Shown in pieces: positions 6,217 through 28,861 of a DNA stretch of 28,861 nucleotides; the stretch's first letter is position 1; every line of letters starts with the position of its first letter. The notes beneath the pieces were generated by a model that worked only from the letters and a program-made list of their open reading frames with translations, made no database searches and was not told the origin of the DNA. Where the stretch lies: IMG/VR virus record IMGVR_UViG_2695420523_000005. The stretch is one strand, 5' to 3'. Origin of the DNA: a virus. Its lineage: Duplodnaviria > Heunggongvirae > Uroviricota > Caudoviricetes. The translations under genes and the position numbers were made by a program.

Positions 6217-6237
6217 GTTGAATATGCTCCTTGATTT

Positions 6238-6258
6238 GGCGGGCTATCCTTGCCCGCC
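6238..6258 (-). promoter_or_regulatory. GC-rich stem-loop between J and the tail fiber with AAGGAUA loop
   Basis: Perfect 7-bp stem ggcgggc/gcccgcc, loop tatcctt; followed on the minus strand by the SD AAGGAG and the fiber ATG at 6216. Confidence 0.5.
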
Positions 6259-6260
6259 AT

Positions 6261-6279
6261 TAAGTAGATACTTACCTAT
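6261..6279. promoter_or_regulatory. Junction motif taagtagatacttacctat between J and the tail fiber
   Basis: Contains the palindrome taagta ga tactta and the TACTTACCTAT core shared with 985..997. Confidence 0.35.
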
Positions 6280-6309
6280 TTTTACCGATATAAAATTTTT
6301 TTTCCACCA

Positions 6310-11040: not shown

Positions 11041-11051
11041 AAAATCCTTGA

Positions 11052-13118: not shown

Positions 13119-13140
13119 TGTTTCATCCTTGAAATAAGTA

Positions 13141-13163
13141 GGCGCTAACATCCTGTCAGCGCC
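13141..13163 (-). promoter_or_regulatory. Stem-loop between M and L with AGGAU loop
   Basis: ggcgctaac/gtcagcgcc with one mismatch, loop atcct on the plus strand; about 25 nt upstream of the preferred L start. Confidence 0.5.
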
Positions 13164-13170
13164 ACAATGA

Positions 13171-13194
13171 TAGTAAATTAGTACTTACTTATCC
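13171..13194. promoter_or_regulatory. Junction motif tagtaaattagtacttacttatcc between M and L
   Basis: Shares the TACTTAC core and AT-rich palindromic flanks; lies immediately upstream (minus sense) of the 13141..13163 stem-loop. Confidence 0.35.
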
Positions 13195-13200
13195 AGATGC

Positions 13201-13536
13201 TTAAGCCTCAAATACTTGTCTGAATGTAGCAGTTAAGACACAGTACCCCTGATATCGCTTGACCGTATGACTGTCACATACAACTACAATCTGCTTGCCT
13301 CTTGGATTAACCCAATAGAACGATTCAACACCTGATCGCTCAGTCAGGAAATCATCGACTGCATTAATTTCGTTGTATGATCTGGTAAAGGTTAACGACC
13401 ATTCTTCTTTAATACGATTAAGACCTTGAGCCTGTCGCTGCTCGTAGTCATCACCAAAATTAAGTACCGTTACATTCGGTTTTACGCTCTTTTCAGATTC
13501 GTAATCTGGATACCAATTAAACGTTTGTCTTTCCAT
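13201..13536 (-). CDS. M: Minor tail protein M
   Basis: 111-aa ORF between the tape measure and L, the canonical lambda order; ATG at 13536 directly follows a hairpin whose loop carries AGGA. Confidence 0.8.
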   Translation of the reverse strand: MERQTFNWYPDYESEKSVKPNVTVLNFGDDYEQRQAQGLNRIKEEWSLTFTRSYNEINAVDDFLTERSGVESFYWVNPRGKQIVVVCDSHTVKRYQGYCVLTATFRQVFEA

Positions 13537-13573
13537 CTCACATCCTTGTGAGACTGCCCCGACCGGGGCAGTC
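13537..13573 (-). promoter_or_regulatory. Two adjacent stem-loops between tape measure and M; the proximal one carries the SD (AGGA) of M in its loop
   Basis: gactgcccc/ggggcagtc (13552..13573, loop gacc) and ctcaca/tgtgag (13537..13552, loop tcct); the M start codon begins at the base of the proximal stem. Confidence 0.6.
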
Positions 13574-13578
13574 GATAG

Positions 13579-16500
13579 TTAGTTACGTTGAGTGTTTGGG
13601 TTGAGTGATCCGCCAGGGCGTTTCTCTTGAGCGATAGTCTCAAGCGCGATTGCTTTCATCCGTTGAGCGGCATTGTTCCATATGCTTTCTGTATCGCCGG
13701 ATTCTGTCGTGCTACCGTCACTATGGACGTTGATCTCAATTGATACAGGAGAAAGAACATTTCCTCCTCCACTCATACCATCGGTACTTAGCGTTACAGG
13801 GATTGTTCGACCATCAGGCAATGGAACATACGCCTCATTCATATCGCCTTCCCCAAACAACGCCAATTGAGGTGAGTTGGCGATACCGCCTTTCTGGTAT
13901 GCCCGGAGCGGGATCACGCCGTCTTTTCCGAATATTCCTCCATTTGCAAACTTCGGGATTGCAGGAATGCCATTCGTGCCATCGGCAGCAGAACTGGTCA
14001 GATTGTTGAACCCGGAAGTTGAGCCAGAAGAACCGGACATCAATCCATCGAATCCACCACCAGCCCAAGCTGAAACAAGACCAGATGCAACCGTTGCTCC
14101 AAAACTCAACCACTTATTACCAGAGCCGGAAGCATTAGCTCCAAGCATTGCAAACGCGGCAGACAGCGCGCCGGTAACAGAGCTGAGGTTCTGCATCGAG
14201 AAGATGGAGTCCTTCACTGCTTTTGTCTCAGCATCTTTGGCTTCGGTGCTATCAAATAGCCCCGATACCCAGCTACCAATCGCATTTGTTGCTGTGCCAA
14301 TTGCGCTGGTGGTCTGCTGTGTTGTTTGCCCCAATCCAGTTACCGAACTGGACGTCTCCTTCGTGGCTTCTCCTACAGACTTGTCGCCGTTAACAGTGTT
14401 GCCCATTCGTACCCCTTGATTGGCAACGGCGGAAGCAACCCCGGTCAGCAAATTACCACTCTGTGAACTACCAGCAGCGGTGGTCCCCATCCCCAACATG
14501 TTCATTAGAGGCAGCGTGATCTGCGACTTCACGACCATATTGGTGATATCTTTCAAAATGGACTGAGATAGGCTGGAGAAGCTCATCTTCCCGTTAATAA
14601 CGAAATCAGTCAGGACATCAGTTAAGCCACTAAACAAATCAGTCCAGGTGCTTTCGATCTGCTCTGCCAGGTTTTCGTATTCCAGTGCCAACTTCTGCGT
14701 CGCAGTCCCCGTCTCTTTAATAAGCGCGGTATTGCCAGCAGCAATCAGTTGATTGATTTTCTTTGTATAAAGCGCCACAACTTTAGGATCAGACGCCTTA
14801 TCACGAAGTTCTATCAACGCTTTGAGATTGCGGTTGTAGGTGTCTTCGAAATCAGCAACTTTCTCTTCACGAGACGGCGTATAGCCAGCACTAATAATGG
14901 AATCCGCCTCCGGTGCCCAAGTGGAGATCATCTGCTCAACATTGCGGCGATTAAACATCTCGCGATATTCAGGTGTCGCATTTTTGAGGTCTTCAAGACG
15001 TTTTTTCGCCTTGTCGATCATCTCTTGAGTGATGAACTCGTTAGGTACCGCATTAGCCAAATCTGTCAGCGATTTCGTTGTATCGCGAAGAGACTGATCA
15101 AACGATACCGTAGCCTTAGAGCTTTCACCCATTTGCCCCATAAGCTGATCAGCTTTGTCCAGAGCCTTCTGGTATCCGGCTGCCAGTTTCTGTTGCGCTG
15201 CCTGTTCCTTCTTGGCCGCACGCTGCGAGGCGTTAGCTGATCGTTGGGCTGCTTTCTCGGCAGCTGCTGCATCCTGTTCACGAGCTTTAGTCAGTGCAGC
15301 AATGGCTGCAGCACGCTCTTCATCGCTCATTTTCTCCAGAGAGCTGGCGCTGGATGCTTTCTGCAAATTAAGCTGCGTCTTGAGTTGTTTAGGCCCAATA
15401 ATCGGCTTACCTTCGAAGTCCATCATCGGAGTGCCGTCAGGCAAAGTACGCTGATAAGTCGCAGAATCCATCTGGTTTCGCATATATTGCGCCAGCGCCT
15501 TCTGAGCAGCTTTATCAGTTGTACCTAACCCAAGAACAGTCCCCTGGTTTGACATTACGCCCTTACCAGTTTTGGCCGCGTTATCTCTCTCGAACTCTGC
15601 CTGAGTCAGCTCCTGAGCAACGGCTTCCAAATGCTCCTGATAACCACGAATACTGCCTTGCAGTTTCTGGATCTGCTCGGTATTTCCATCCTTTTTGGCT
15701 TTTTCAAGCTGATCATTAAGAGTCGCAATTTGCTTCTCGGTCGCATTCTTACGAGAAGAAAGTGAATCAACCAGTTTTTGCGCAGGCTCCAGATAGCTTT
15801 TGTTTACCGTTTCACGTAACGGTGCCAATAGCTTGTTCTTTTCGTCATCTGAAAGTGAACCGTCATCATTGATTTTCTGGATCTTATCCAGAGCCTCCTG
15901 CCGGGCTTTCACGAATGTTGCCGCGAAAATCTGGTTTTCCGCTCGAATTTTCTCAATCTGAGATTCGGCAGCCTCTTTAGCCAAACGCTTTGCTACAGCG
16001 CCGTCACCAAGAGCTATCGTGCCGGTTATCTTTTGATACTCTTCCTGATTTTTTTTCAGGCGTGCTTCGATGTCAGCCTTCGACTCTTTGTGAGTAATAA
16101 CACCGGCAGAGTTAGATACGTAATTAACACCCTCACCAGTTTTTAATGCTCGTTGATCAGCAAGAATCTGCTTTTCGAGCTTTTCTGCGCGGTCGGCCAT
16201 TTGTGCACGTTTGGCCGCTGTCATCGCTTCTGGTATTTTCCTAATCTCGTCAACGACCTTTGAAGTTTCGCTGCGGAGCATGGTCATGTACGTGATTAGG
16301 CCAGCAACAGCTACAGTGGCAACTGTAAATGCTGCCCCTATAGGGTTTGCTGCAATGAACGCCGTTAATCCAGCAAAAGCGCCTTTAAGCCCCGTAATCG
16401 CCCCACGGATGGCGAAAATAAGAGAGGGGATCGGAGCCAGCCCCATACGTGCCGCACGATTGAATCGAGTTACTGCTGTAGCGCCGAGGTTAAATGGAGT

Positions 16501-18168
16501 CTGTATGGCGGTCGCCATCGTGGCAAAGGTGCTAACCATCTGGCTCCCAGCGCCAACTACCCCCATGATCCCTGCTCGCATCAGTTTGAACGCAACCATC
16601 GCGGCCACGACCTTACCGAGATTAATTACCAGCTCTTGGTTCTTTGCTAACCATTGAGCAAGCTGACGCAACCCATCGATTGCCGTTGTTAACCCCGAAC
16701 CTAAAGAATTGGCAAACGAAATCCCTTCGGCGCTATTCATGATTGAAGCCAGTTCTTTCATCCCCTTCGATAGAGAATCCAGATATCCGGCCTGACCAAC
16801 CCGATCAGCAAATAACGTGAATGACGTCTGAAGTTGCGCCAGCGCACCTGTGTAGGTTTGCATCATGTCTTTCGCTGCGTTCTCATTCTCCGCACGCAGA
16901 CCAACAAACATCAGAGACAACGCCTGTTTTGCCTCAACCGTACCGCTGGCAACGGCTTTAGTCAGTTCCCCCATAGTGATGCCTGCGGCGTCTGCCATTG
17001 CCTGCATCGCGTTAGGAACGGCTTCACCTAATTGCTGACGTAGCTCTTCCATTGACACGACGCCCTTACCGGACATCTGCTGAACGGCCACAGCCGCACG
17101 TTTCAACAGCTCACTATCACCACCAAAACGAGCAACGGAGTCCACCAGCGCCTTCAGAGAGCCATCGGTTGGATCTAAGCCAGCAGAACGAAACTTCACG
17201 AAGGAATCTGTTAACGCCTGCATCGCGAACGGCGCATTTTGAGCCATGTCTACGATGTACTTCATGTCATCGGCGGCAGCCTGGCCAGGGTTAGACTTCT
17301 CCTTATTCAACCCACGAAGCATCACCCGCATACGTTCCATTTCGGCCGCAGCTTCAACAATAGGCTTCTGCCATCCAAACATGATGTCAGTAACCGTTCT
17401 GGCTGCATCTCCGATCTCGCCAAGCAGGAAAATGTTGCCACGAAGGCCAGAGAACATACCTCCTTCGTTACTTTTACCGCTATGGCCAGAGCCGCTACGC
17501 CGCCCGCTGCCACCATCGCCACTTCCAGATGTACGAACGCGTACCGGCTTGCTAATCAGTTGCTGACGTCCGATAACTTCGTCCATCTGCTCACGAACCT
17601 TTTTCAGTCCCTCGGCAGCCTGACTCGTTGTGACACCCCAATTACTGAGTCGCTTCGTCGTGGTATTAAGGCGCGTATTCATGCCACTCACGGACGCAGA
17701 GGCTTCTTTGACCTCCGTACCAAAGCGGCTTGCGCTTTTGCTTGCATAGGTCGCCCAATCAGAGAAATCATTTAGCTCTGATTGCACTTTACGTAATGAC
17801 GCGGTGAGTTTATCTACTGAAGAAGTTGTCGTATCGACGCGCTCAATCAGGGCTTTAAGACCAGAATTGAGGCTGGTGATGTTGCCACGCATTTTACGCG
17901 TAGCATCTGAAGCAAGCTCAAAACCGGCAGCTACATCCTGTAGTTTATCTGCCGTAGAATCGAGCTTGCTTTCCAGAACGCCAATGATACGGGCGACCGA
18001 ACCCAAAGAGCGTTCAAAGGTTTGGATTTTTTGAGCAGGCTTTGTTACCTGCTCACCAAATCGAGTAAGCAGTTTCCCCGCACGATCGATTGACGCTGTA
18101 AACTGTTTGTCTTCCAGCGACAGGATAAACTCTACGTTTTGTGACATTCCCTTGTCATCCTCTGCCAA
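13579..18168 (-). CDS. H: Tail tape measure protein
   Basis: 1529-aa ORF, largely helical/coiled-coil with Gly-rich C-terminal part and hydrophobic central segments; position after G/GT. Start is TTG at 18168 (MAEDDKG... resembles recalled lambda gpH N-terminus MAEPVGD); first ATG is at 18147. Confidence 0.9.
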   Translation of the reverse strand: MAEDDKGMSQNVEFILSLEDKQFTASIDRAGKLLTRFGEQVTKPAQKIQTFERSLGSVARIIGVLESKLDSTADKLQDVAAGFELASDATRKMRGNITSLNSGLKALIERVDTTTSSVDKLTASLRKVQSELNDFSDWATYASKSASRFGTEVKEASASVSGMNTRLNTTTKRLSNWGVTTSQAAEGLKKVREQMDEVIGRQQLISKPVRVRTSGSGDGGSGRRSGSGHSGKSNEGGMFSGLRGNIFLLGEIGDAARTVTDIMFGWQKPIVEAAAEMERMRVMLRGLNKEKSNPGQAAADDMKYIVDMAQNAPFAMQALTDSFVKFRSAGLDPTDGSLKALVDSVARFGGDSELLKRAAVAVQQMSGKGVVSMEELRQQLGEAVPNAMQAMADAAGITMGELTKAVASGTVEAKQALSLMFVGLRAENENAAKDMMQTYTGALAQLQTSFTLFADRVGQAGYLDSLSKGMKELASIMNSAEGISFANSLGSGLTTAIDGLRQLAQWLAKNQELVINLGKVVAAMVAFKLMRAGIMGVVGAGSQMVSTFATMATAIQTPFNLGATAVTRFNRAARMGLAPIPSLIFAIRGAITGLKGAFAGLTAFIAANPIGAAFTVATVAVAGLITYMTMLRSETSKVVDEIRKIPEAMTAAKRAQMADRAEKLEKQILADQRALKTGEGVNYVSNSAGVITHKESKADIEARLKKNQEEYQKITGTIALGDGAVAKRLAKEAAESQIEKIRAENQIFAATFVKARQEALDKIQKINDDGSLSDDEKNKLLAPLRETVNKSYLEPAQKLVDSLSSRKNATEKQIATLNDQLEKAKKDGNTEQIQKLQGSIRGYQEHLEAVAQELTQAEFERDNAAKTGKGVMSNQGTVLGLGTTDKAAQKALAQYMRNQMDSATYQRTLPDGTPMMDFEGKPIIGPKQLKTQLNLQKASSASSLEKMSDEERAAAIAALTKAREQDAAAAEKAAQRSANASQRAAKKEQAAQQKLAAGYQKALDKADQLMGQMGESSKATVSFDQSLRDTTKSLTDLANAVPNEFITQEMIDKAKKRLEDLKNATPEYREMFNRRNVEQMISTWAPEADSIISAGYTPSREEKVADFEDTYNRNLKALIELRDKASDPKVVALYTKKINQLIAAGNTALIKETGTATQKLALEYENLAEQIESTWTDLFSGLTDVLTDFVINGKMSFSSLSQSILKDITNMVVKSQITLPLMNMLGMGTTAAGSSQSGNLLTGVASAVANQGVRMGNTVNGDKSVGEATKETSSSVTGLGQTTQQTTSAIGTATNAIGSWVSGLFDSTEAKDAETKAVKDSIFSMQNLSSVTGALSAAFAMLGANASGSGNKWLSFGATVASGLVSAWAGGGFDGLMSGSSGSTSGFNNLTSSAADGTNGIPAIPKFANGGIFGKDGVIPLRAYQKGGIANSPQLALFGEGDMNEAYVPLPDGRTIPVTLSTDGMSGGGNVLSPVSIEINVHSDGSTTESGDTESIWNNAAQRMKAIALETIAQEKRPGGSLNPNTQRN

Positions 18169-18822
18169 ATATTTGCATCAGTTGCTCTTTGGCGTCAGGG
18201 TCTGCCTTATCCTGGCTTGGATCGTAGACTTTATCTGTTACGACTGGTCTTCCAATCCTGAGTTGCAAACCCTCCATGAACGCCTTCACAGCCTCGCCAT
18301 CCGCCTGGGACGCACGAGCGACTTGTAAGTTGCGGACATCCTCTTCCGCACGCAGACGGTCTATATTGCGACTGAGCATCCAGAACATCGTGAGAGGAAC
18401 GTTCAGTAGCTCTAATGGCGACACGGCGTAGTGAGCAACTACACGACTGAAATAGAATCCGAGATCTATTGAGACGGTCCTTGTCCCGGATTCATCGCGG
18501 GAAATTACTTTGCCCCTTCGCCAGCCGCTTTTTCGTTTTCTTCATCAATCACTTCCATAGCGAAGGTGAAGATCTGCTGGAGTTGCGGAACAGTCAGTTT
18601 TTCAAGAACTTCATCAGGCACTGAAGGGATAACCTTACGAACCAGATCTGCATAAGCTGTCACTTGCTCAACAGGAGACATGTTCATGAGATCTTTTCCT
18701 TCCATCTGCTTGATGGAAACGAACAGACCTACCGTCATTTCAACGATGGGATATTCCTGACCGCCAAATTTGATGCTTTTCTTCGGAGGCAGAATGGAAT
18801 CGAGATCGAGTAATTTGGTCAT
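18155..18822 (-). CDS. Tail assembly chaperone G-T fusion produced by programmed -1 ribosomal frameshift
   Basis: The downstream ORF (track 18155..18424) is in the -1 frame relative to G and that frame is open from 18541, giving a 36-nt overlap window (18508..18541) containing an AAAAAG run at 18528..18533. The slip site is not the canonical lambda GGGAAAG. Confidence 0.6.
18505..18822 (-). CDS. G: Tail assembly chaperone G
   Basis: 105-aa acidic ORF immediately upstream of the tape measure; ATG 18822 with AAGGA upstream; stop TAA at 18507..18505. Confidence 0.8.
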   Translation of the reverse strand: MTKLLDLDSILPPKKSIKFGGQEYPIVEMTVGLFVSIKQMEGKDLMNMSPVEQVTAYADLVRKVIPSVPDEVLEKLTVPQLQQIFTFAMEVIDEENEKAAGEGAK

Positions 18823-18833
18823 TGGTTAAAATC

Positions 18834-18864
18834 CTTTTAAAAGAGAGGCTCATCCTGAGCCTCT
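18834..18864 (-). terminator. Terminator/attenuator-like stem-loop downstream of the major tail gene
   Basis: 9-bp stem agaggctca/tgagcctct (18844..18864) with 3-nt loop; followed on the minus-strand RNA by CUUUUAAAAGGAU, then the ATG of G at 18822. Confidence 0.55.
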
Positions 18865-18877
18865 GCTTAATTACTGA

Positions 18878-19624
18878 TTAATCTGCGGAGTTAATCGTTA
18901 CTGACTTAGTAGCCTTCTTAGAACCGCTATTGCTGGTGAAGGAGATGTTTGCTGTACCCTGCGCCACACCGCGCACAAGACCCGTTTGATCTACCGTGGC
19001 CTTTTCCTGGTCTTCGGATTCCCAAACACCGGTTTTGTCTGCGGCATCAGCTGGAGTGATTTCGGCTGTCAGTTGCACAGTTTCTCCAGCTTTTACGGTT
19101 GGAGATTCCGGTGAGATCGACACAGTTTTTACCGGTTTAGGACCGCTCATTTTGCCCAGAACGCCTTCATCATCCGGGTATGCGCTGAACTGAACAGAGA
19201 ACACACGAACATCATCAGACTGGTAAGTCATAGTGAAGTTGCCCGCGGTTGCCGCTTTCGGGATGGTCAACACATAGTCGGTGGTGTCCTGCGGAGTCAG
19301 AACCAGCTCCTTCGCCACATCAATCAGGTTAACGCCCTGTGCAGATGTGATCGTGACAGAGTTGTCATCTTCGCTCAGAGTAGAACCAGGCATCAGGTCA
19401 ACCATGTTTTGGAGTACAGACTCAGCCAGAGGCGCGGTGATGGTAATGTTGCGCCCCTGAACTAATTCGGAAATTACGGTCTGCCCCAACTGATCGACGG
19501 TGACTTTCAGTGTTTCAGTGGCTACTTCAACCTGAACACCACCTTTGGTGTAACCCAAATCCACACCACCAAACGACACCTTACAGGCACCAAGTTTGAT
19601 GTTTTTTACATGGGTATTAGACAT
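18878..19624 (-). CDS. Major tail (tube) protein with C-terminal Ig-like (Big_2) domain
   Basis: Position immediately upstream of G; C-terminal ~80 aa (VSISPESPTVKAGETVQLTAEITPADAADKTGVWESED...) is an Ig-like repeat like those of the 22284..23204 protein. Track start 19660; I prefer ATG 19624 (MSNTHVKNIK...) with AAGGAG upstream. Confidence 0.8.
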   Translation of the reverse strand: MSNTHVKNIKLGACKVSFGGVDLGYTKGGVQVEVATETLKVTVDQLGQTVISELVQGRNITITAPLAESVLQNMVDLMPGSTLSEDDNSVTITSAQGVNLIDVAKELVLTPQDTTDYVLTIPKAATAGNFTMTYQSDDVRVFSVQFSAYPDDEGVLGKMSGPKPVKTVSISPESPTVKAGETVQLTAEITPADAADKTGVWESEDQEKATVDQTGLVRGVAQGTANISFTSNSGSKKATKSVTINSAD

Positions 19625-19672
19625 TGATGGAAAACTCCTTTTTCCGTTAATTCTACGCATTCATTGCGCTAA

Positions 19673-19692
19673 TAGTAAGTATATACTTACTA
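19673..19692. promoter_or_regulatory. Perfect 20-bp AT-rich palindrome tagtaagtatatacttacta upstream of the major tail gene (recurrent TACTTAC junction motif)
   Basis: The sequence equals its own reverse complement; lies between the upstream stop (19699) and the major tail start. Confidence 0.4.
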
Positions 19693-19698
19693 ATTGAG

Positions 19699-20055
19699 TT
19701 AATTCAATAAATAGCCAGCAAATTCAACAGGAATGCCTGCTTCTATTAATGCCCCATCATTTTTGGGATAAATGATTGGCATCGCCATCGGTCGAACAAG
19801 TCGAAAATAAACACCACCAGATTCCGTTTCCTCTACTGGAAACATCTCAATGATTTTATTGGCTTTCTCAACCGTCGTAGTAATTGACGAACCACGCACA
19901 ATTATTGTGAATGATTCGTGGTAAAAGCCCTGTAGCTCATGATCGATGCTGATACCGGTATTTGGGTTAATAAGCAGGACGCCAGATTTCACATTGGCAG
20001 GCAAGTAGTGACAGAAAATGTCAGTCCCGACCGTGCCAATCTTTGCCTTCTGCAT
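19699..20055 (-). CDS. Tail terminator-like protein (by position, gpU-equivalent)
   Basis: Track ORF 19699..20205 starts at TTG and overlaps the upstream gene by ~120 nt; ATG at 20055 (MQKAKIG...) removes the overlap. Function by synteny only. Confidence 0.45.
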   Translation of the reverse strand: MQKAKIGTVGTDIFCHYLPANVKSGVLLINPNTGISIDHELQGFYHESFTIIVRGSSITTTVEKANKIIEMFPVEETESGGVYFRLVRPMAMPIIYPKNDGALIEAGIPVEFAGYLLN

Positions 20056-20083
20056 CAAACTTGCAAACGCTTCAATAAACACA

Positions 20084-20557
20084 TTAACCTCTCGTAAAAC
20101 CGGCTTTTCTGGCAGCCTCAAGAATCGCTTCTGAGAACTGCTTCTCGCTAATTTCCACCGCTCTTTCCAGAAAGTGTGGCCCAACACGAGGTTTAACACC
20201 GGCAATTGGTGGGTTTGTCACGTTCTTCATTCGAGAAAGATAACCGAGTCGGTATTTACCCAGCTCCATGTACTTAGCATAGTCACCTACTTCTACGCCC
20301 GGATGCCCCTGACGTGGTTTTGCTCCAGACACAGAAAGCTCAATACGCAGCCCTGAATAACCTTCTTTAATCACCCTGGCAAAGATGGCTGTCTCCAGAG
20401 ATCCGGTTTCCAGCGGGGCCATTGCACGGCTGAGACGCTCAACCAAACGCGCCAGCTTTTCCATGTCCCGGATAAGATATCGCTTAAATGCTTTCTGGCT
20501 GTTGTTGAGTCGATTCCCCGCACGTTTGAACTGATGCGCATCGTATTTCAGACCCAT
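20084..20557 (-). CDS. Head-tail joining / tail completion protein candidate (by position)
   Basis: 157-aa ORF, ATG at 20557 overlapping the upstream stop by 10 nt; no recognisable motif. Confidence 0.45.
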   Translation of the reverse strand: MGLKYDAHQFKRAGNRLNNSQKAFKRYLIRDMEKLARLVERLSRAMAPLETGSLETAIFARVIKEGYSGLRIELSVSGAKPRQGHPGVEVGDYAKYMELGKYRLGYLSRMKNVTNPPIAGVKPRVGPHFLERAVEISEKQFSEAILEAARKAGFTRG

Positions 20558-20892
20558 ATATTCGCCCCTACTTCAAGATGCCCAGGTCTTCCTCGTAGCC
20601 CCCAGCGGCGATGAACACTGGACACCTTTAATTTTTGACCTTCAAGGATCAGTACATCATCAAGTTGTACAGCCGCTTCCAAAGGGACAACTAACACAGC
20701 ATCAAACAGCTCCAGACTCGCCTTACCACGACTACCAGAGCTATCAGCACGAACTGACGATTTCTCATTACTCTGTTCGAACTTAACCACGCCGACATTC
20801 GTCTTCCTGACGAATTGTAATTGCGCCTCACCGTAAACGTTCTTTGCGCCAAAGCGGTAGATCGCAATTTCTGTTTGCCATGAAATATTCAT
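20548..20892 (-). CDS. Head-tail joining protein candidate (by position)
   Basis: Track ORF starts at 20988; internal ATG at 20892 (MNISWQTEIAIY...) has GGGAGA about 5 nt upstream and avoids overlap with the preceding gene. Confidence 0.45.
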   Translation of the reverse strand: MNISWQTEIAIYRFGAKNVYGEAQLQFVRKTNVGVVKFEQSNEKSSVRADSSGSRGKASLELFDAVLVVPLEAAVQLDDVLILEGQKLKVSSVHRRWGLRGRPGHLEVGANIWV

Positions 20893-20971
20893 GCTCTCTC
20901 CCTGTTGTTGTCGGTCGCTCTCATTACTGGCCAAAAACCCTTTAGACCAAAAGTAAATAATGCGACTGGCG

Positions 20972-21805
20972 TTACGCACGGCGAACAATCATACGGTTGT
21001 TGATGTAACTGACCAGCAAGCGCCAGGTACTGCGAGCCACATGCACGTTTGCAGCTTTACCGGTACGGTACATGTTGGTTGTTTCACCGATGGACTCTGA
21101 CAAAATGCCATCCTCTCGTGCTGCGGCAACATCATTGCCATTTGCGATCTCACACGCTTCGTTGACAACGGCAAGCATCAACGCTTCTTTGAAGTAGTCA
21201 GGGAACTCTTCAAACTTCTCCTGCGTCATCTTTTCCCAATCGACTAAATCATGCCGGTACGCTCCATCTGCTCCCCACGGAATGTCATACACATTCAGCA
21301 TATTTTGAGGGCGATCGTATCGGTCAAAGTCGATACGTAGAATTTTGCGGATTGAGAACGGTAAAGTTTTAATTCGTCTGGTAGCCTCAATGAGACGCTT
21401 GCGCATTAAGCCTTCACCATCCGACAGCAAAGTGTCCCCATTCAGCATATCGATCGCCTGCATTTGAGCATCAGCGACAGTTGCAAACGACTGTTCTGGT
21501 ATCGACAGTTCAAAACTATTCAGCAGAACATACATTTGCCGCTCTTCATGCGTCAGACCCGATGCAACAGCCTTCACAATGACGTACCGCAGATCGCGTT
21601 CTTTCTCTGAGAGCTGGTTATATTCAGCCGACACGACAACCGGAATCGACATTTGCCCGCTGGTAATTTCTAGCGGCTCGCCATCAACGAGAATAGCCCC
21701 GGTGCTGTCCTTTACTGTGTAGGTGGCAGATTCGATATCCAGCACGTTGAAGGCAAATGAAAGAGAAACAGCTTCACCGCTACGATACGAGTCGATCTGC
21801 GCCAT
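20972..21805 (-). CDS. Hypothetical head-tail connector region protein (277 aa)
   Basis: ATG at 21805 overlaps the upstream stop (TAATG coupling); unusually large for an adaptor protein; no motif recognised. Confidence 0.5.
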   Translation of the reverse strand: MAQIDSYRSGEAVSLSFAFNVLDIESATYTVKDSTGAILVDGEPLEITSGQMSIPVVVSAEYNQLSEKERDLRYVIVKAVASGLTHEERQMYVLLNSFELSIPEQSFATVADAQMQAIDMLNGDTLLSDGEGLMRKRLIEATRRIKTLPFSIRKILRIDFDRYDRPQNMLNVYDIPWGADGAYRHDLVDWEKMTQEKFEEFPDYFKEALMLAVVNEACEIANGNDVAAAREDGILSESIGETTNMYRTGKAANVHVARSTWRLLVSYINNRMIVRRA

Positions 21806-22239
21806 TACTCACCGCCTTGTGCTTTCAGGATGCCTTCAATCATCTCGACAATTCCTTTCGCTTTAACACCAACCTGATTACCAATAACTCGTAGACCGGC
21901 AATACCTTCATTGTCTGCAATTGACTCCAACTCTTCTCGTGTGAAAGTCTGGAGCTGTTTGATCGGTTCATCTGGCGTCCCTCGTTTCATTGGCACAATG
22001 TCAGGCGCTACTGGCTCTGTAATCAGGTCTGCGGCCAATTCACCACGATCACTGTATGCGGCAGATGGGGAAACATTTTTTCCCTCTACTGTTGACGCTC
22101 GCATTGATGCACAAATTCTCTGCTGATCGATAAAAGGCAACTCTGCGACGGACACCCCATTCTCGAACTGAACGCCGCACAACATTCCCGAATAACCGGA
22201 AAATTGCGGTTCTAATAAAACAATTTTTGCTGGTTTCAT
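21805..22239 (-). CDS. Hypothetical head completion / adaptor candidate (144 aa)
   Basis: ATG at 22239, preceded by a GC-rich stem-loop with GAAA loop (22258..22275). Confidence 0.5.
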   Translation of the reverse strand: MKPAKIVLLEPQFSGYSGMLCGVQFENGVSVAELPFIDQQRICASMRASTVEGKNVSPSAAYSDRGELAADLITEPVAPDIVPMKRGTPDEPIKQLQTFTREELESIADNEGIAGLRVIGNQVGVKAKGIVEMIEGILKAQGGE

Positions 22240-22257
22240 AACGCTTTCTCTCTACAT

Positions 22258-22275
22258 GGGCGGCGAAAGCCGCCC
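22258..22275 (-). promoter_or_regulatory. GC-rich stem-loop (GAAA loop) between the Ig-like protein gene and the next gene
   Basis: gggcggc gaaa gccgccc, perfect 7-bp stem; no U-tract follows on the minus strand. Confidence 0.45.
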
Positions 22276-22283
22276 AATATCGG

Positions 22284-23204
22284 TTATTCCTGTGCGGCAG
22301 TAACTTCTACAGTCGCTGTCGCTTTGTGGCTACCATCTTGGGTAGTAACCTCGATTGTGGCAGTGCCAGCCGCAACACCAGTTACAACACCGGTTTCGCT
22401 GTCCACCGTTGCAAACTCGGTATTTTTGGATTCCCAAGTAACGGTTTTATTTGTTGCTCCTGCCGGCTCGACATTTGCGGTCAGCTGAACAGTTTTGTTT
22501 GCCTCAACGGTTGTGCTATTTGGGTCGATTTCGACACCAGTAACAGCCACAACAGGCGCAGTTACTTCCACCGTTGCAGTTGCCTTTTTGCTGCCATCTT
22601 GGGAAACGATCTCAATCGTCGCAGTGCCAACTTCTACACCAGTAACGTTCCCGCTCTGGTCTACCGTTGCCTTGTCTTCATTTTTGGAAGACCAGGTAAC
22701 TGCCTTATTCGTCGCATTTGACGGCTGAACATTCGCTTTCAGACTGACTGATTTCCCTTTCTCAACAGAAGTTGAGTCTGGCGTTACCGTTACGGATTGA
22801 ACGGCTACCGGATTTACGGTGACTTCCACTGACGCGGAAAGCTGGGTTTCCTGATCAGTTGCGGTAATTTTCACTTTGCCTGGTGCTACGCCAGTTACTA
22901 ATCCAGTGCCGTTGACGGTTGCAATTTGATCATTGGCTGACTTCCAGGTGAATGAACTGGCACTCTTACCCATAGTAATACCTGCACTAAGTTGAACAGT
23001 TTTCCCAACCAAAACTGACGGTGAAGCCGGGGTTATGTTTACGGATTGGGAGAAGGGAACCGCCTGCAAACAAGCAGATAGCTGACTTTGCTGTCGCTCG
23101 GTTAAAGGTTCATCGGAGATTGAATTGGTAAATCCGGCACGGCACATATGCCCCGTAAAATCCGAAAATGCCTCTTCCGTAATCTTCATCTTTTGTTCTG
23201 GCAT
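22284..23204 (-). CDS. Protein with three tandem Ig-like (Big_2) domains; capsid decoration protein candidate
   Basis: Three ~90-aa repeats of the pattern SV.VTP.S.SV..GKTVQL.A.V.P..ATNK.VTW.S.N...ATVD..G.VTGV..GTA.I; ATG 23204 with GGAG upstream; immediately downstream of the major capsid gene. Confidence 0.7.
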   Translation of the reverse strand: MPEQKMKITEEAFSDFTGHMCRAGFTNSISDEPLTERQQSQLSACLQAVPFSQSVNITPASPSVLVGKTVQLSAGITMGKSASSFTWKSANDQIATVNGTGLVTGVAPGKVKITATDQETQLSASVEVTVNPVAVQSVTVTPDSTSVEKGKSVSLKANVQPSNATNKAVTWSSKNEDKATVDQSGNVTGVEVGTATIEIVSQDGSKKATATVEVTAPVVAVTGVEIDPNSTTVEANKTVQLTANVEPAGATNKTVTWESKNTEFATVDSETGVVTGVAAGTATIEVTTQDGSHKATATVEVTAAQE

Positions 23205-23214
23205 TTCTCGCTCC

Positions 23215-23245
23215 TACAAAAAGGGTGGGCGTATAGCCCACCCTT
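23215..23245 (-). terminator. Intrinsic terminator-like stem-loop downstream of the major capsid gene
   Basis: Perfect 10-bp stem aagggtgggc/gcccaccctt with loop gtata (23221..23245); on the minus-strand RNA it is followed by UUUUUG, then GGAG and the next ATG at 23204. Confidence 0.7.
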
Positions 23246-23250
23246 TAACA

Positions 23251-23268
23251 TAGATAATTACTTATCTA
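23251..23268. promoter_or_regulatory. Junction motif tagataattacttatcta (imperfect palindrome), just after the major capsid stop
   Basis: 17 of 18 positions identical to the copy at 26674..26691; arms tagataa / ttatcta are reverse complements. Confidence 0.4.
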
Positions 23269-23277
23269 CTGCACTGA

Positions 23278-24153
23278 TTAAATTTTTACATTGGTCAGTG
23301 CAGCGATAGCCTTATCGTGCTTATTCGCCAGAGAGCAGTACCACTTCACACGGGTACGTACTGCGTCTTTGTTCTGTACAGTACCAATGTTTTCAACAAC
23401 GATACCTGCGTTGTCGCCGCCATACAGACCAGTAACGCCGTTCTCTTCTGACAGATGCAGGCAGTAGATGCTTGCTTTACCAGCATCGGTCGGGATGAAG
23501 TCGTTGATGATGAACGGAACGCCGTTATGACACAGCATCGGACGACCAAAGTTCTCCATCATGATTTCAGACGGACCTACGTTTACTGTACGCAGCAGCG
23601 CACGGTAAGCACGAAGGTGCTCTGAACGCATCATGATGCAGTCAGCACCAAGATCTTTCACCGCATCGACCAGTTCGTCGAACATAGAGAAAGTCATAGA
23701 TGCACCGGCGATATCGATCTTCTGATCTGCGTGCATCAGGCGTGGAATGCCGTCAAACGCTTTGTTGTTGGTGCTGGAGTCACCCAAAATCAGATTGCGA
23801 CGGAACGCACGAGCCAGACCTTTAACTTTCTGACGAACCTGAATAGCCAACTGGTTATTGGTGTCGGCCATAGTGGTTGCCAGGAATTTATCAACGTCTA
23901 CGTCACCAGCCAGAATACGCAGTTTCGCAACGCATTCTTCGAAGGTTGCTGCACCTTCAGTGATGGTGTCGTTAACGTCGATGAAGGTAGCTTCACTCAG
24001 CGTTTTTTCACGATTGTACAGATATGCCTTTGAATTAATTTTCATAAAAGGCAGGATGGCAAACAGGTCATCGCGATCAATGATAGTTTCGATCACACCC
24101 TGTTCGAGTTCGTTGTTAGACAGCTTTTCAGCTTCTTCACGCAGTAATGGCAT
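23278..24153 (-). CDS. Major capsid protein
   Basis: 291-aa ORF between scaffold and decoration candidate, followed by a strong intrinsic terminator; assignment by position and size, family not identified. Confidence 0.7.
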   Translation of the reverse strand: MPLLREEAEKLSNNELEQGVIETIIDRDDLFAILPFMKINSKAYLYNREKTLSEATFIDVNDTITEGAATFEECVAKLRILAGDVDVDKFLATTMADTNNQLAIQVRQKVKGLARAFRRNLILGDSSTNNKAFDGIPRLMHADQKIDIAGASMTFSMFDELVDAVKDLGADCIMMRSEHLRAYRALLRTVNVGPSEIMMENFGRPMLCHNGVPFIINDFIPTDAGKASIYCLHLSEENGVTGLYGGDNAGIVVENIGTVQNKDAVRTRVKWYCSLANKHDKAIAALTNVKI

Positions 24154-24178
24154 CTATCAATTCCCTTTGATTTAGATG

Positions 24179-25066
24179 TTACTTAAGTCCAATTTTCCCC
24201 AGACCGGAGGCCAACTTATCCATAGTCGACTTGTTCTTCGGTTGGGATATTGTGTAGGTCGATTTGGAATGTGAGCCTACACCCTGCTTGGCTTCGCTAC
24301 GCATCAATGCGTCAGCTTCCGGATCTGCCCGCACAATGCGTTCAATCGCGGATTCAAACGGCAACGGCTTACCTTCACCGTCAACCAGAACAGCTCGTTC
24401 TTTATGACCTGTCGGTTTGTCATAACCCACTACGCTACCGTCTTCACCCACTTCAAAATGAGAACCGTAGATCACGCGGGCTTTTGCCGGGGTCATCAGA
24501 ACTTTGTCACGTAGGAAGAGAGAGTTACTGAAGGAAGCGCCCACGGTCATCTCGACTAATTGAGATTTCAGTGATGCGTTTTCACTTTCCAGTGCTGTAT
24601 AACGTTCGTCACGCTGTGCCAGTTCTGCCTGGTGTGCTTCGATCATCTGTTTTTTAACAGCATCGAACTCACCACGACGCTCCAGTTCAGCTTGCTCCGC
24701 CTCACGACGTGCATTTTCTGCGGCCTGTTCAGCTTCTAAAAGCTGGCGAGCACGCGCCGGGTCGATATCACCGTACTGAGCAAGCTGATCGGCCAATGTG
24801 CGCTCTTTCTCTTTGCGCTTCATGTTCTCCTTCAGCAGTTCAGCACCAGCTTTCTTGGTTTTACGAAGTTCGGCCAGTAACTCTTCCTGAGTCATGCCAG
24901 CGTATTCGTCATCGCCCTTCGGCTGCTCTTTTTGTTCACCCTGTTTGTCAGGATCTTGTGTGCTCTGCTCATTATCAGCAGCTACACCGCCAGCGCCTCC
25001 ACGCTCATGCGCTTCAGCGACATCCATCAGACCACGACGGGCCAAAAGCATTTGCCACAGATTCAT
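24179..25066 (-). CDS. Capsid scaffolding protein
   Basis: Highly charged, Glu/Ala/Arg-rich helical protein (e.g. ARQLLEAEQAAENARREAEQAELERR) between portal and capsid genes; ATG 25066 with AGGA upstream. Confidence 0.65.
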   Translation of the reverse strand: MNLWQMLLARRGLMDVAEAHERGGAGGVAADNEQSTQDPDKQGEQKEQPKGDDEYAGMTQEELLAELRKTKKAGAELLKENMKRKEKERTLADQLAQYGDIDPARARQLLEAEQAAENARREAEQAELERRGEFDAVKKQMIEAHQAELAQRDERYTALESENASLKSQLVEMTVGASFSNSLFLRDKVLMTPAKARVIYGSHFEVGEDGSVVGYDKPTGHKERAVLVDGEGKPLPFESAIERIVRADPEADALMRSEAKQGVGSHSKSTYTISQPKNKSTMDKLASGLGKIGLK

Positions 25067-25087
25067 AAAAATTCCTTTTGTTACTTA

Positions 25088-26662
25088 TCACTCGTTCTCT
25101 TGAGTAGATGAGTCCCCATTCCCTCGGGGTTGATCTTGCCCGCTTTCTTGGGCTGCACCACGATCATAAGTAAGTACTGACTTATTTTCAAGGGTATTTA
25201 GATCATTTTTTGGAGGAAAATTCAAGAGATCTTTATCAAATTCCTTTTTCATCGCCTCAGTAATGTTCGGGAAAATCTTCTCAATAAGCATTTCCATCTG
25301 GTGACGACGTACAGAGTCCGGTGCCTGAAGTAATGACAGTTTCTCGGCAACAGAAAATTCATCAGTAAGGCCACGAATATCGAAACTTTCTGGATACGCA
25401 ATTAAAGAGTGGTCTTCGTCCAGATCTACCCCCATCCATTTCGCAACCAGTAGCATGATTTGGCGTTCAGCCCTTTCCAGACGCTCTGCTTTTGTGACAA
25501 GCAAGCTATTTACACGCTGGAAGTCATACATTTTTGCGGCACCAGATGAATTATCGATTCCCTGTGCGTTGTCCTGCTTCGTTCGCTCACCAGCTACACC
25601 AACTGAATGGTAGATTTCGTTAATCACCGTCTTAATCGTAGTGATGATCATCTGAGCTTGTTTCGGGTCTGGTGACAGATAAAACGGCTGGTTTCCACCT
25701 TCAGAATCGTAGGTGAAGACTCGCTTTGTGCCCATTTCAAGCACTTTAGTGTGGTTTTCATCACCAGGTAAAAGCGACTGTACCGGTATAGCCAACTGGC
25801 TAAATGTCTGATCCTGAATAATGGCATCAAGGTTTGACAGATAGTTTGCAACCGCACGATCAAGATAAGCGATATCATCGATCAACGATGGGCTGAAATA
25901 CGGTGATTCACTTTCTCCAATACAATCAACAGGAAACACAGGAACTACGCCGAGATTATGCTCACCGCTATCCTCTAAAATAACTTTTGCCTGACGGCGA
26001 CCTGCTCCACCAGCGCCCTTCTTCACTTCCTCACGGAACAGATACCACTCGTTTTGTGTCCACAGACGATAACGTTGGTATTCCTGACCTGTAGAAGTAA
26101 AAGGATCTGCGTCATCACGAGCGACTTCCACAATTAACGCCCACAACATATTCCCGTCGTCGTCCCACGCCACATCCAGCATTTGCTGAGGTGAAATCCA
26201 GTAGGCGTAGGCGCGAGCATCTTTCTTTTTCTCGTCAGCTACTGACTCAACATCACCACTCATCGTGCTATCGACAACAACCCATATGCGACCGTAAATA
26301 GACGACTGCAAATCAATAGCGGCCATAAATGAGTCAATAGAGGCATTCTGGCGAGTCGCACGTTTCCAGAAATTGCGGATCTGCTCTGGTGCCTCTTCGA
26401 TATTTCTATGAATGTCTTCTTTAAAGAGATATTTGTTGATGAGGTTTACCACCTCACGAGTGTGGTTGAAGCGATAAGCACGTTCAACTCGCTCCTTAAA
26501 CTCCTGATCTCCCTCTTTAAAGTAACGAAAGATATTGTCTGTAAACCAACCACGCCCGCCAGCGTAAGTGCTGGCGAGGAAGTCCCAATGTTCTTTTTTC
26601 TTTTCGTATTCCGGGTGGCGTCGCGCCACCAGATCCTTAATTTGTTTGTCGTTCAATTCCAT
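25088..26662 (-). CDS. Portal protein
   Basis: 524-aa ORF immediately downstream of the large terminase; size and position typical of a portal; no motif-level confirmation. Confidence 0.8.
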   Translation of the reverse strand: MELNDKQIKDLVARRHPEYEKKKEHWDFLASTYAGGRGWFTDNIFRYFKEGDQEFKERVERAYRFNHTREVVNLINKYLFKEDIHRNIEEAPEQIRNFWKRATRQNASIDSFMAAIDLQSSIYGRIWVVVDSTMSGDVESVADEKKKDARAYAYWISPQQMLDVAWDDDGNMLWALIVEVARDDADPFTSTGQEYQRYRLWTQNEWYLFREEVKKGAGGAGRRQAKVILEDSGEHNLGVVPVFPVDCIGESESPYFSPSLIDDIAYLDRAVANYLSNLDAIIQDQTFSQLAIPVQSLLPGDENHTKVLEMGTKRVFTYDSEGGNQPFYLSPDPKQAQMIITTIKTVINEIYHSVGVAGERTKQDNAQGIDNSSGAAKMYDFQRVNSLLVTKAERLERAERQIMLLVAKWMGVDLDEDHSLIAYPESFDIRGLTDEFSVAEKLSLLQAPDSVRRHQMEMLIEKIFPNITEAMKKEFDKDLLNFPPKNDLNTLENKSVLTYDRGAAQESGQDQPRGNGDSSTQENE

Positions 26663-26673
26663 TTGAATAACCT

Positions 26674-26694
26674 TAGATAATTACTTACCTATCG
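26674..26694. promoter_or_regulatory. Junction motif tagataattacttacctatcg overlapping the large terminase stop, upstream of the portal start
   Basis: Near-identical to 23251..23268; same TACTTAC core as 985..997, 6261..6279 and 13171..13194. Confidence 0.4.
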
Positions 26695-27945
26695 AGAACC
26701 ACCAAGAATAACACGGTTTTTGACTGGATACCTACGATGTACTGGATAGCCCAATGCGTCTGCACTATGCTCAATGCCACCTGTCTTATCCATATCTCGT
26801 GTTCCAGGCTTGTAGATGACTTTTTCCAGTGAATCAATCAAATGCTTGCACTTCGGATCGATATACAGCCGGATATCTCCAGATGCGGACATCAGCATTC
26901 GGTTAACAGCATTAACACGATCCGCAATTGGCGGGTGCTTTTTCGAATAATCGACACGTAAGAATCCCTTCTCTTTGAATATGTCTACGTCAGACTCCCC
27001 ACGAGCATGTTGGCGATAAGCACCTGCCGGATCTGGAAATACCGTTACCTGTGATTTCCAGCGCCAGAAGCGTCTCTCAAGCTCATCACAAACTTCTGCC
27101 GTGTTAGAGGAAAAGAGCACCAATTCATCAATTGCCCATAGCTCACCATTTGGCTGAGGTTGCAAAATTACTGAAGACATCGGGTCAATGTTGAAGTCCT
27201 GCCCTACCCATATAGGCAACCGAGGGTTGAACTGAAGCGGTTTTACATGCACGTTACGATCGAACGGGTAGTAAACGCGCCCGGACATGTTCTCAAAGCT
27301 GGCCAGGTACTCCTGAGCGAACGATTTGGGGTCCATATCGTTCTTAGCAGCTTCAATTTCCGCCGTAGGTACAAACGGAGAATCGGCAGTTACAAACTGC
27401 CAGCTCTTCCACTGTCCCTTTCTTTGCAGCTCTACGTTCTGGCCTATCGTCCACAGTTTGTGAAATTCCGAGAAGCCTTTTGGCGTACCAATGATCAGTG
27501 CACCGCCGCGTGTCGATGAAAGAGTAGGTCGTAACACCTTGTACCAGGTGTCAGCCTTCATATCCTGAAATTCATCAAGCACTACAAAATGCAACGCTAC
27601 GCCGCGCAGAGTGTCAGGCTTATCAGCACCTTTGAGGGCGATCTCCGAACCGTTCTTCAACACGATTGTCATCGTGGTGTCGTTCTTTTTCCTAACCCAC
27701 TTACGAGGCAGAACTTCCTGTAGATCGTCCCACAAAATCTGGCGAGCCATCTGGTAAGTAGGAGCGACATACCAGACCCTTTGCTTTTTTTCCTTTGCCG
27801 CCGCACGAATAATAGTGGAGATCGACAACCGAGATTTTCCCCAGCGTCGACCAGCACAAACAACTTTAAATCGATGCGGAGACTGGAAGACTTTCATCTG
27901 TCCAGAATGCAGTTGCACAAGACTGAGCGAGGACGGGATTGCCAT
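26689..27945 (-). CDS. Terminase large subunit
   Basis: N-terminal Walker A-like motif (CAGRRWGKS) followed by an acidic DE-type segment (FVVLDEFQDM); start ATG overlaps the terS stop (TAATG). Confidence 0.85.
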   Translation of the reverse strand: MAIPSSLSLVQLHSGQMKVFQSPHRFKVVCAGRRWGKSRLSISTIIRAAAKEKKQRVWYVAPTYQMARQILWDDLQEVLPRKWVRKKNDTTMTIVLKNGSEIALKGADKPDTLRGVALHFVVLDEFQDMKADTWYKVLRPTLSSTRGGALIIGTPKGFSEFHKLWTIGQNVELQRKGQWKSWQFVTADSPFVPTAEIEAAKNDMDPKSFAQEYLASFENMSGRVYYPFDRNVHVKPLQFNPRLPIWVGQDFNIDPMSSVILQPQPNGELWAIDELVLFSSNTAEVCDELERRFWRWKSQVTVFPDPAGAYRQHARGESDVDIFKEKGFLRVDYSKKHPPIADRVNAVNRMLMSASGDIRLYIDPKCKHLIDSLEKVIYKPGTRDMDKTGGIEHSADALGYPVHRRYPVKNRVILGGSR

Positions 27946-28577
27946 TATTCGTCCTCCCCTTCACTTCCATCATCTGTCGCATCAAATTCGCTTAGAGCTT
28001 CTTCTTCCAACGTCTCAAGCAATTCGTCATCGATGATTTCAGGCTCGTCGTCTTCCTGACGTAATTTCGCCACCTGGGAAGGCGTAAGCTCACCAAATAC
28101 CAGGTTCGGAATTTCTTCCTCGTCATTTTCCGCATGATCCATGCCCAATGCTTTGGACGAAACTTCAAAGCATTTTGCAAGGGTATTACTGGCTCTCTGT
28201 AAGCTCTTGAGAGAATCCTCAATCGCCCCTAAAGGCTTACCCTCACGTTTGGCCGTAGTGACTTCGACCATCACCATCTGCCCCAACGCATACGCCCAGC
28301 CGTCATAATGTGTACGACGTTCTTCTATCTTTTCCGCACGGGCTTTAGCGCGAAGCTCCGCGTCAGATTTAAGAGACTCACGAACCATCTTCCCAACAGA
28401 GTCCGCGCCTTTCTCTAATCCTCGCTTTTTGAAATGTCTGGAGAGTGTTTCACGACGAATGCCGTACTCTTCCTCCAGCTTTGAGAGTGTATATTCGCCT
28501 GACGTCCATTTGGCTTCAGCTTCGGCCCACTCCGCTGGTGTCAGGCGAGTTTTTACCTCGTCTTTTTCGACCGTCAT
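27945..28577 (-). CDS. Terminase small subunit (N-terminal HTH-like DNA-binding region, acidic C-terminus)
   Basis: 210-aa ORF directly upstream of and coupled to the large terminase; ATG 28577 with GAGGG upstream; C-terminus very acidic (DDGSEGEDE). Confidence 0.65.
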   Translation of the reverse strand: MTVEKDEVKTRLTPAEWAEAEAKWTSGEYTLSKLEEEYGIRRETLSRHFKKRGLEKGADSVGKMVRESLKSDAELRAKARAEKIEERRTHYDGWAYALGQMVMVEVTTAKREGKPLGAIEDSLKSLQRASNTLAKCFEVSSKALGMDHAENDEEEIPNLVFGELTPSQVAKLRQEDDEPEIIDDELLETLEEEALSEFDATDDGSEGEDE

Positions 28578-28582
28578 AGATC

Positions 28583-28656
28583 CCTCTAAAACACACAGAG
28601 CGCGTCCATGCGCTCTAAAACAACTTGTTTACTGCATCTGCTAACCAACTTGTTTT
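28583..28656. promoter_or_regulatory. Direct-repeat cluster and stem-loop immediately upstream of terS (candidate packaging or late-regulatory site)
   Basis: ctctaaaaca at 28584 and 28613 flanking hairpin agagcgc gtccat gcgctct (28598..28617); caacttgttt at 28621 and 28646. Confidence 0.4.
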
Positions 28657-28692
28657 CTGGGGTGTTTAATTAGGTCTGGCATGTCTTACGAA

Positions 28693-28746
28693 GCCTGCTT
28701 CCGTATATATTTAATAAGTTACTTATTATTTATATATACAGAAGCA
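28693..28746. promoter_or_regulatory. Long AT-rich imperfect palindrome upstream of terS, abutting the IS1 end
   Basis: cctgcttccgtatatatttaataag / cttattatttatatatacagaagcagg are near reverse complements around a ttac centre; the last two bases of the right arm belong to the IS1 terminus. Confidence 0.45.
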
Positions 28747-28861
28747 GGTAATGACTCCAACTTATTGATAGTGTTTTATGTTCAGATAATGCCCGATGAC
28801 TTTGTCATGCAGCTCCACCGATTTTGAGAACGACAGCGACTTCCGTCCCAGCCGTGCCAGG
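28747..28861 (-). mobile_element. IS1 terminal fragment (inverted-repeat end plus 3' end of insB), truncated by the window edge
   Basis: 28747.. reads GGTAATGACTCCAACTTATTGATAGTGTTTTATGTTCAGATAATGCCCGATGACTTTGTCATGCAGCTCCACCG..., which I recognise as the reverse complement of the IS1 right end. insB stop codon at 28763..28765 on the minus strand. Confidence 0.9.

Follow-up and report, generated by a model that had tools for sequence, protein, structure and literature searches.

An IS1 insertion at the edge of a conserved palindrome upstream of the putative terS gene of an SSU5/pHCM2-type phage-plasmid

A 28,861-nt viral sequence (IMG/VR record IMGVR_UViG_2695420523_000005; "the window" below denotes this whole stretch) ends within what had been read, from the sequence alone, as an IS1 element inserted upstream of the small terminase gene of a prophage. 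The locus raises the question of what kind of element received the insertion, what exactly the insertion has separated, and whether packaging or late-gene expression is affected by it.

Megablast comparison with complete E. coli genomes identified positions 28747–28861 (115 nt, minus strand) as the right-hand end (IRR) of an IS1A/IS1B-type element, with 100% identity over the full length. In an annotated IS1 copy, the alignment opens at element base 1, which lies 15 nt outside the transposase CDS, and position 28747 is the start of the terminal inverted repeat at IRR, GGTAATGACTCCAACTTATTGATAG. The minus strand of the segment encodes the C-terminus of InsB, the last 32 codons (28765–28860) being identical to InsB and followed by the stop codon at 28762–28764; the element then runs off the window end. 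The initial annotation of the last 115 bp as an IS1 terminus with the 3′ end of insB is thereby confirmed, and the alternative that the segment is not IS1, which was examined, is contradicted by a match at 115 of 115 nucleotides. The visible part does not differ from known IS1A/IS1B copies. As had also been described, IS1 is oriented in the same way as the phage genes: insB, the putative terS, terL, the portal gene and all other phage genes of the window are on the minus strand. The same 115-nt query was found at 71,720 places in 4,963 of the 5,426 complete E. coli genomes (median of 10 per genome), and the assignment of the source to an IS1-bearing enterobacterium was borne out. The window thus ends in a genuine copy of IS1, a familiar element, and novelty is confined to the place of its insertion.

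The DNA flanking IS1 matches plasmids of about 110 kb and phage SSU5 rather than an integrated prophage, so that the earlier label of prophage has to be abandoned. Identity of the flank is 99.6–100% to non-mobilizable plasmids of about 110 kb from E. coli, E. albertii and Shigella sonnei, and about 78–82% to SSU5, pHCM2 (S. Typhi), pMT1 (Y. pestis) and plasmids of Klebsiella, Enterobacter and Cronobacter. Around terS, SSU5, pHCM2 and pMT1 show about 79–82%, with a value of 79% for the terS region of SSU5. Positions 12001–28746 align with the E. coli relatives in one piece (98.8% over 16.7 kb), and positions 90–12000 align with 99.4% identity. ORF lengths equal those of the annotated reference p19KM1803_1, and the packaging, head and tail genes of the late module correspond gene by gene, in the same order, to those of p19KM1803_1 and SSU5. 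The relatives, 103–117 kb in size, carry plasmid replication and partition genes, such as RepB in p19KM1803_1 and ParA in SSU5; such genes would fall outside the window. By these comparisons, the element carrying IS1 is a phage-plasmid of the SSU5/pHCM2 type, and the window is its late module, otherwise intact.

Gene order and sequence of the late module are shared within the SSU5/pHCM2 group (SSU5, pHCM2, pLF82/Cyrano, pECOH89), and the region around terS is also common to pMT1 of Yersinia pestis; the window copy differs from the other SSU5/pHCM2 members in having IS1 between the gene of an 88-aa protein and terS. Phage-plasmids of this kind are active as phages: SSU5-like elements are packaged after mitomycin C treatment (PMC9600943), and for Cyrano (pLF82), which has a copy number of 5.5 per cell, ciprofloxacin gave a 39-fold induction, with DNase-protected DNA quantified by qPCR (PMC9928086).

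Insertions in this family have been described at other places. Antibiotic-resistance insertions in SSU5/pHCM2-type phage-plasmids cluster at one other locus (PMC9600943), and gain and loss of IS elements in such phage-plasmids have been noted in a recent survey (bioRxiv 10.1101/2025.09.12.675607). In the relatives considered here, p19KM1803_1 has an IS3-family element within its host-specificity J gene, which is thereby split (NZ_CP151018.1, 12237–13952 in locus extract L002), and the late module of CP056801.1 contains ISEc9 and an IS3-family element; IS insertions into the late module thus recur in relatives. At the opposite end of the window, positions 1–89 are unaligned in the closest E. 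coli relatives, whose matches begin at position 90, but are matched in a minority lineage, that of NZ_CP025883.1 and its relatives. The step at base 89/90, at the 3′ end of a 189-aa ORF (33–602, minus strand), appears from these alignments to mark a recombination boundary.

The uninterrupted relatives show the native state of the insertion point. There they read ...ACAGAAGCAGGTCTTTAAAT (over a longer stretch, ...TATATATACAGAAGCAGGTCTTTAAATAAGCTCCCAGACC...), and the window is identical to them through position 28749, because a native GGT stands where IS1 opens with GGT. Between IS1 and the putative terS start codon (ATG at 28577) 169 native bases are retained (28578–28746), which agrees with the distance of about 170 bp given in the initial annotation. 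After position 28746 the relatives continue with GGTCTTTAAAT, and the stop codon of the 88-aa gene follows 27 bp beyond the insertion point. The site lies in a 195-bp intergenic region flanked by the 88-aa gene on one side and the putative terS on the other, in accordance with the intergenic location described earlier, and no ORF is broken by IS1. The GC content at 28670–28789 is only 25–33%, which agrees with the preference of IS1 for A/T-rich target DNA reported by Zerbib et al. (1985), as cited in PMC9330008. The last native bases before IS1, ACAGAAGCA (28738–28746), are the predicted 9-bp target-site duplication if the event was a simple transposition.

The comparison with uninterrupted related elements that had been proposed for this locus yielded several hundred of them. 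The near search found the site without insertion in 215 E. coli genomes and 184 plasmids. Of the 798 PLSDB plasmids matched in the distant search, 754 have the native arrangement, and so do at least 53 of the 76 IMG/VR loci; in these sets and in the 215 genomes its distance from terS is constant. The observed junction was absent by megablast from complete E. coli genomes, PLSDB plasmids and INPHARED phages, and an exact 28-mer across it was found in none of 185,579 GTDB species genomes, nor in IMG/VR or the JGI metagenomes; it was also asked whether relatives share the junction, and no collection searched contains a match to it. The other junction expected for a simple insertion (IRL, 5–13 nt and GGTCTTTAAATAAGCTCC) was not found in GTDB genomes or JGI metagenomes, no IS1 end occurs within 3 kb of terS in any of the 76 IMG/VR loci, and the chimeric 48-aa ORF that spans the observed junction matched no record by exact sequence. 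Since neither the junction nor its predicted counterpart is present in any collection searched, the insertion is, as judged from these searches, private to the source isolate.

A second match place per record in the relatives was considered as a sign of a resident IS1, which could have given rise to an intramolecular rearrangement. The record of NZ_LR882992.1 comprises three segments, and in the two that were scanned (about 78% of the record) no IS1 end was found, which speaks against a resident copy; the second match is probably a further copy of the palindrome described below. For the same reason, the most likely origin of the IS1 copy in the window is the host chromosome or another plasmid.

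The window ends 115 nt into IS1; the second inverted repeat (IRL), expected about 768 bp away, any duplication and whatever follows the element would lie past that point. We consider a simple insertion to be quite likely and, in keeping with ordinary transposition, the match agrees exactly with the canonical IS1 terminus. An unlikely alternative is an IS1-mediated rearrangement (a deletion or inversion of neighbouring DNA, a cointegrate formed with the chromosome or another replicon, or a composite transposon of the Tn9 kind with cargo), in which case the sequence beyond IS1 would not be the 88-aa gene. The break of the contig inside IS1 leaves the other side unconstrained, and the searches missed the partner junction of a simple insertion, as they did the observed one; on the other hand, there is no evident partner IS1 in the scanned 78% or so of the related phage-plasmid, the rest of the late module is undisturbed, and simple insertions are the commonest outcome of IS1 transposition. 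According to PMC9330008, IS1 and Tn9 can also give rise to deletions of adjacent DNA, to inversions, and to cointegrates and composite transposons, the intramolecular deletions and inversions arising without direct repeats.

An assembly artefact, in which a chimeric read or mis-assembly joined an IS1 end to the phage-plasmid, is suggested by the position of the junction at the very end of the window and by the high copy number of IS1 (see the median above), and we regard it as highly improbable. The overlap between native and IS1 sequence is only three bases (GGT), much less than a k-mer mis-join would need, and the break coincides with canonical IS1 base 1. In short-read assemblies, real insertions typically show up as contigs that stop a little more than 100 nt inside a repeat. 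A real insertion of IS1 also explains why the contig ends where it does.

The insertion abuts a long AT-rich palindrome, as the initial annotation had recognized, and this part of the earlier description is correct. Its other part, that the first bases of IS1 complete the right arm of the palindrome, does not hold: the relatives carry GGT natively, so the palindrome is native and its last two bases, now supplied by IS1, are identical to the original ones. The core (28694–28748), CCTGCTTCCGTATATAT ... ATATATACAGAAGCAGG with the inner stem TAATAAGT/ACTTATTA, consists of 17-nt arms at 28694–28710 and 28732–28748, which are 94% complementary, and an additional inner 16-nt pair; it is the terS-proximal copy of the element. 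An arm match of this quality is expected 0.04 times by chance, and the z-score of the RNA fold in the window is −5.2.

The native element is larger than its core. Outer motifs TCTGGGAG ... CTCCCAGAC flank the core in all copies, and the window retains one conserved outer arm at 28673–28680, GGTCTGGC on the plus strand or GCCAGACC when read in phage sense. The matching arm, GGTCTGGGAG, is on the far side of IS1, and the adjacency of the two is lost. The uninterrupted sequence folds into an extended hairpin of about 100 nt with −53.4 kcal/mol (z −8.2), whereas the interrupted window sequence yields −33.6 kcal/mol from the core only; the cut made by IS1 in the terS copy runs between the upstream outer arm and the core.

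Three copies of the core are present in p19KM1803_1, at 34147–34201, 67599–67653 (the terS copy) and 96625–96679, and SSU5 has the same three, syntenic with those of p19KM1803_1. In locus-extract numbering, copies are at L002 31600–31654, L008 34147–34201 and L009 21126–21180; for SSU5, they are at L094 33459–33512 and at 78305–78359 of the SSU5 record. Each copy begins 11–28 bp past the stop codon of a co-directional gene and lies about 109–119 bp ahead of the next start codon. Similar palindrome copies were also seen in plasmids pLAO59 and pYLPI6a.

Sequence identity in the intergenic region upstream of terS reaches 90% when E. coli, pHCM2, pMT1, Cronobacter, Klebsiella and SSU5 are compared, with a nearly invariant core, whereas the surrounding coding DNA is about 80% identical across the same genera. 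This higher conservation of noncoding than of coding DNA indicates a constrained cis-function for the palindrome region. The upstream outer arm GGTCTGGGAG, now beyond IS1, shows no variation in six genera and belongs to each of the three copies.

Arm position 9 (window positions 28702 and 28740) has T in one arm and C in the other in six of the seven copies examined, so that nearly always there is one wobble or mismatch, and the strand that would give a G-U pair is inconsistent. With the arms read by hand, four copies favour the sense and two the antisense strand, and a strand-specific G-U pair as an argument for a hairpin at the RNA level was dropped for this mixed result.

Searchable literature yielded no description of the function of this element, and we considered three possible readings. 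The first is a packaging site. The SSU5 record ends with ...ACTTATTA and begins with AATATATACGG, that is, the SSU5 sequence was opened inside the palindrome with neither loss nor duplication at the join. Its base 1 corresponds to window position 28711 and that of Cyrano to 28710; these openings are 9–10 nt from the centre of the palindrome, and the possible virion DNA end they mark is 36 bp from IS1. The gene that adjoins the SSU5 record start was not annotated as a terminase by the SSU5 authors, which suggests that the start was not chosen for its proximity to a terminase gene, and none of 76 IMG/VR contigs ends at the palindrome, which argues against a routine assembly break as the origin of the SSU5 start. 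The SSU5 opening is nevertheless a weak indication of a packaging end, from a single source, since it may be a physical DNA end or a mere convention. The start of the Cyrano record was set aside as independent evidence for a virion end, because the Cyrano sequence is that of plasmid pLF82, which was re-annotated and compared with SSU5 (PMC9928086). Our search of the searchable literature for experimental virion termini of SSU5-type phage-plasmids returned none.

The arrangement can be likened, by analogy only, to the cosQ-cosN-cosB organization of lambda cos: a symmetric element lies about 117–134 bp upstream of the putative terS, dyad motifs lie between the two, and the SSU5 record starts inside the element. 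Unlike lambda cos, which this analogy invokes, the element has two extra copies far from terS, in both p19KM1803_1 and SSU5, and is not a unique site; the downstream dyads are found only at the terS copy. Also unlike a typical cos site, a palindrome cut with a symmetric stagger would leave a self-complementary overhang.

The second possible reading is an operon-boundary terminator or RNA-processing hairpin. The position just past stop codons fits it, and copies A and C have U-rich tails, but the tail of the terS copy, CUUCGUAAG, is not U-rich, and the terminator scan makes no call there. The third possible reading is an operator for a regulator. Under all three, IS1 takes the invariant upstream arm away from the core.

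The retained leader between the palindrome and terS contains further conserved features. Two dyad-symmetric motifs, read from the sequence and conserved across genera, are located at 28618–28630 (AAACAAGTTGTTT) and 28643–28655 (AACCAACTTGTTT); they are 25 bp apart and are fused into one by a 25-bp deletion in Klebsiella relatives. They are candidate binding sites for TerS or for the winged-helix-like 88-aa protein encoded upstream in the relatives. The terminator scan also detected, on the minus strand at 28596–28617, a terminator-like GC hairpin (AGAGCGC-loop-GCGCTCT) followed by the T run GTGTGTTTT. It is directly upstream of the ribosome-binding site of terS, and its stem is invariant and its loop variable across six genera, a pattern that suggests a leader attenuator or an antitermination target. 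A promoter scan found no sigma-70-like promoter between IS1 and terS. A hybrid promoter formed by IS1, with TTGGAG in IRR and TATATA in the palindrome at a spacing of 16–18 nt, was rejected, because no −10 hexamer ending in T is available and the scan is silent at this place.

The genes downstream of the leader were identified with differing confidence. The name terS for the 210-aa gene at 27945–28577 (minus strand) is putative, a positional assignment only. The initial annotation is upheld as to position, the end of the gene overlapping the start of terL, and by the Cyrano record OV696614, the only one in which the gene is annotated as the small terminase subunit; it is not upheld by Pfam, NCBIfam or PDB, where no match was found, and the PHROG family of the protein (867) is described as "DNA binding domain". 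The N-terminal region is helix-turn-helix-like. terL (26689–27945, minus strand, 418 aa) encodes the large terminase subunit according to PHROG families of that name, weak matches to Pfam Terminase_6N and Terminase_3, and a match to PDB 4zni ("Phage terminase large subunit", E = 5e-18); these matches were also considered for the type of packaging and cannot separate cos from headful packaging. The portal gene is at 25088–26662 on the same strand in the ORF list of the window.

In the relatives, an operon lies upstream of terS (4474–7647 in locus extract L001) that encodes two proteins with ParB-N domains, an ABC-type ATPase, a 296-aa protein and the 88-aa putative DNA-binding protein, all co-directional with terS. 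In the source isolate, IS1 would part this operon from the packaging genes.

The explanation that we favour, and hold to be probable, is that a host-derived IS1A/IS1B-type element transposed into an otherwise intact SSU5/pHCM2-type phage-plasmid. IS1 sits exactly at the outer edge of the conserved AT-rich palindrome core, with insA-insB read in the direction of the late genes. The core is preserved because the IS1 end GGT coincides with the native bases, and it is parted from all genes upstream as well as from the conserved outer arm on that side. A simple transposition with the 9-bp duplication ACAGAAGCA would add about 777 bp. Transcription entering terS from upstream would suffer the polarity of IS1, and any cis-function of the element of about 100 bp, be it in packaging (recognition or termination) or in transcript termination or processing, would be weakened.

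We see about an even chance that virion production is impaired by the insertion. A polarity or packaging defect is plausible, and its support is circumstantial: the hairpin is split, the SSU5 start is 36 bp away, and the scan between IS1 and terS was negative for sigma-70-like promoters. IS1 is polar in both orientations; antiterminated late transcription, of the kind known for lambda N and Q, would suppress this polarity. Late promoters of such phages need not resemble sigma-70 promoters, and one may lie in the retained 169 bp. Against an impairment, the palindrome core, both dyads and the leader hairpin are all intact, and the increase of 0.7% in genome length stays within the range of 103–117 kb. 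Maintenance as a plasmid is almost certainly unaffected, because no replication or partition gene is nearby.

The insertion could also be functionally neutral, if terS had a promoter of its own or were served by an antiterminated transcript and the packaging signals were contained in the retained 169 bp and the core. We hold this to be possible, though doubtful. It is favoured by the integrity of all late ORFs and of the cis features (palindrome core, the two dyads and the hairpin of the leader), by the absence of any interrupted coding sequence, and by a gain in size that is small against the natural range. Speaking against it are the lack of a promoter-like site in the retained region, the invariance of the outer arm GGTCTGGGAG in six genera and all three copies, which suggests that the arm is important, and the finding of no insertion at this site in several hundred relatives.

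A comparison with phage-plasmid P1 is instructive, as IS1 is likewise borne there by a plasmid prophage (and Tn9 by P1Cm), and the P1 copy is 99.1% identical to the 115 bases of the window. The P1 copy is in a non-essential region, and P1 stays viable. Unlike it, the IS1 of the window is 169 bp upstream of a putative terS, in a conserved cis-element of the SSU5/pHCM2 family.

Insertion of IS1 into AT-rich intergenic DNA, the build-up of IS elements in phage-plasmids and the decay of phage-plasmids into plasmids are ordinary biology. Returning to the impairment discussed above, the present copy is flagged as a candidate non-inducible or packaging-defective variant, which bears on its ability to spread by infection. 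We also put forward, with low confidence, that the element of about 100 bp, with its 55-bp AT-rich core in three copies, is a cis-signal of SSU5/pHCM2/pMT1 phage-plasmids that has gone undescribed, that its terS copy contains the site of packaging cleavage or recognition, and that the IS1 insertion is a natural cis-mutant of it. If the packaging-signal reading is true, IS1 would uncouple the core from its upstream arm and lock the phage-plasmid into a plasmid-only life style. The insertion draws attention to a conserved three-copy palindrome near the terminase genes of a widespread clinical family (pHCM2, pMT1 and plasmids of E. coli and Klebsiella), and it would provide a ready-made mutant of this palindromic element.
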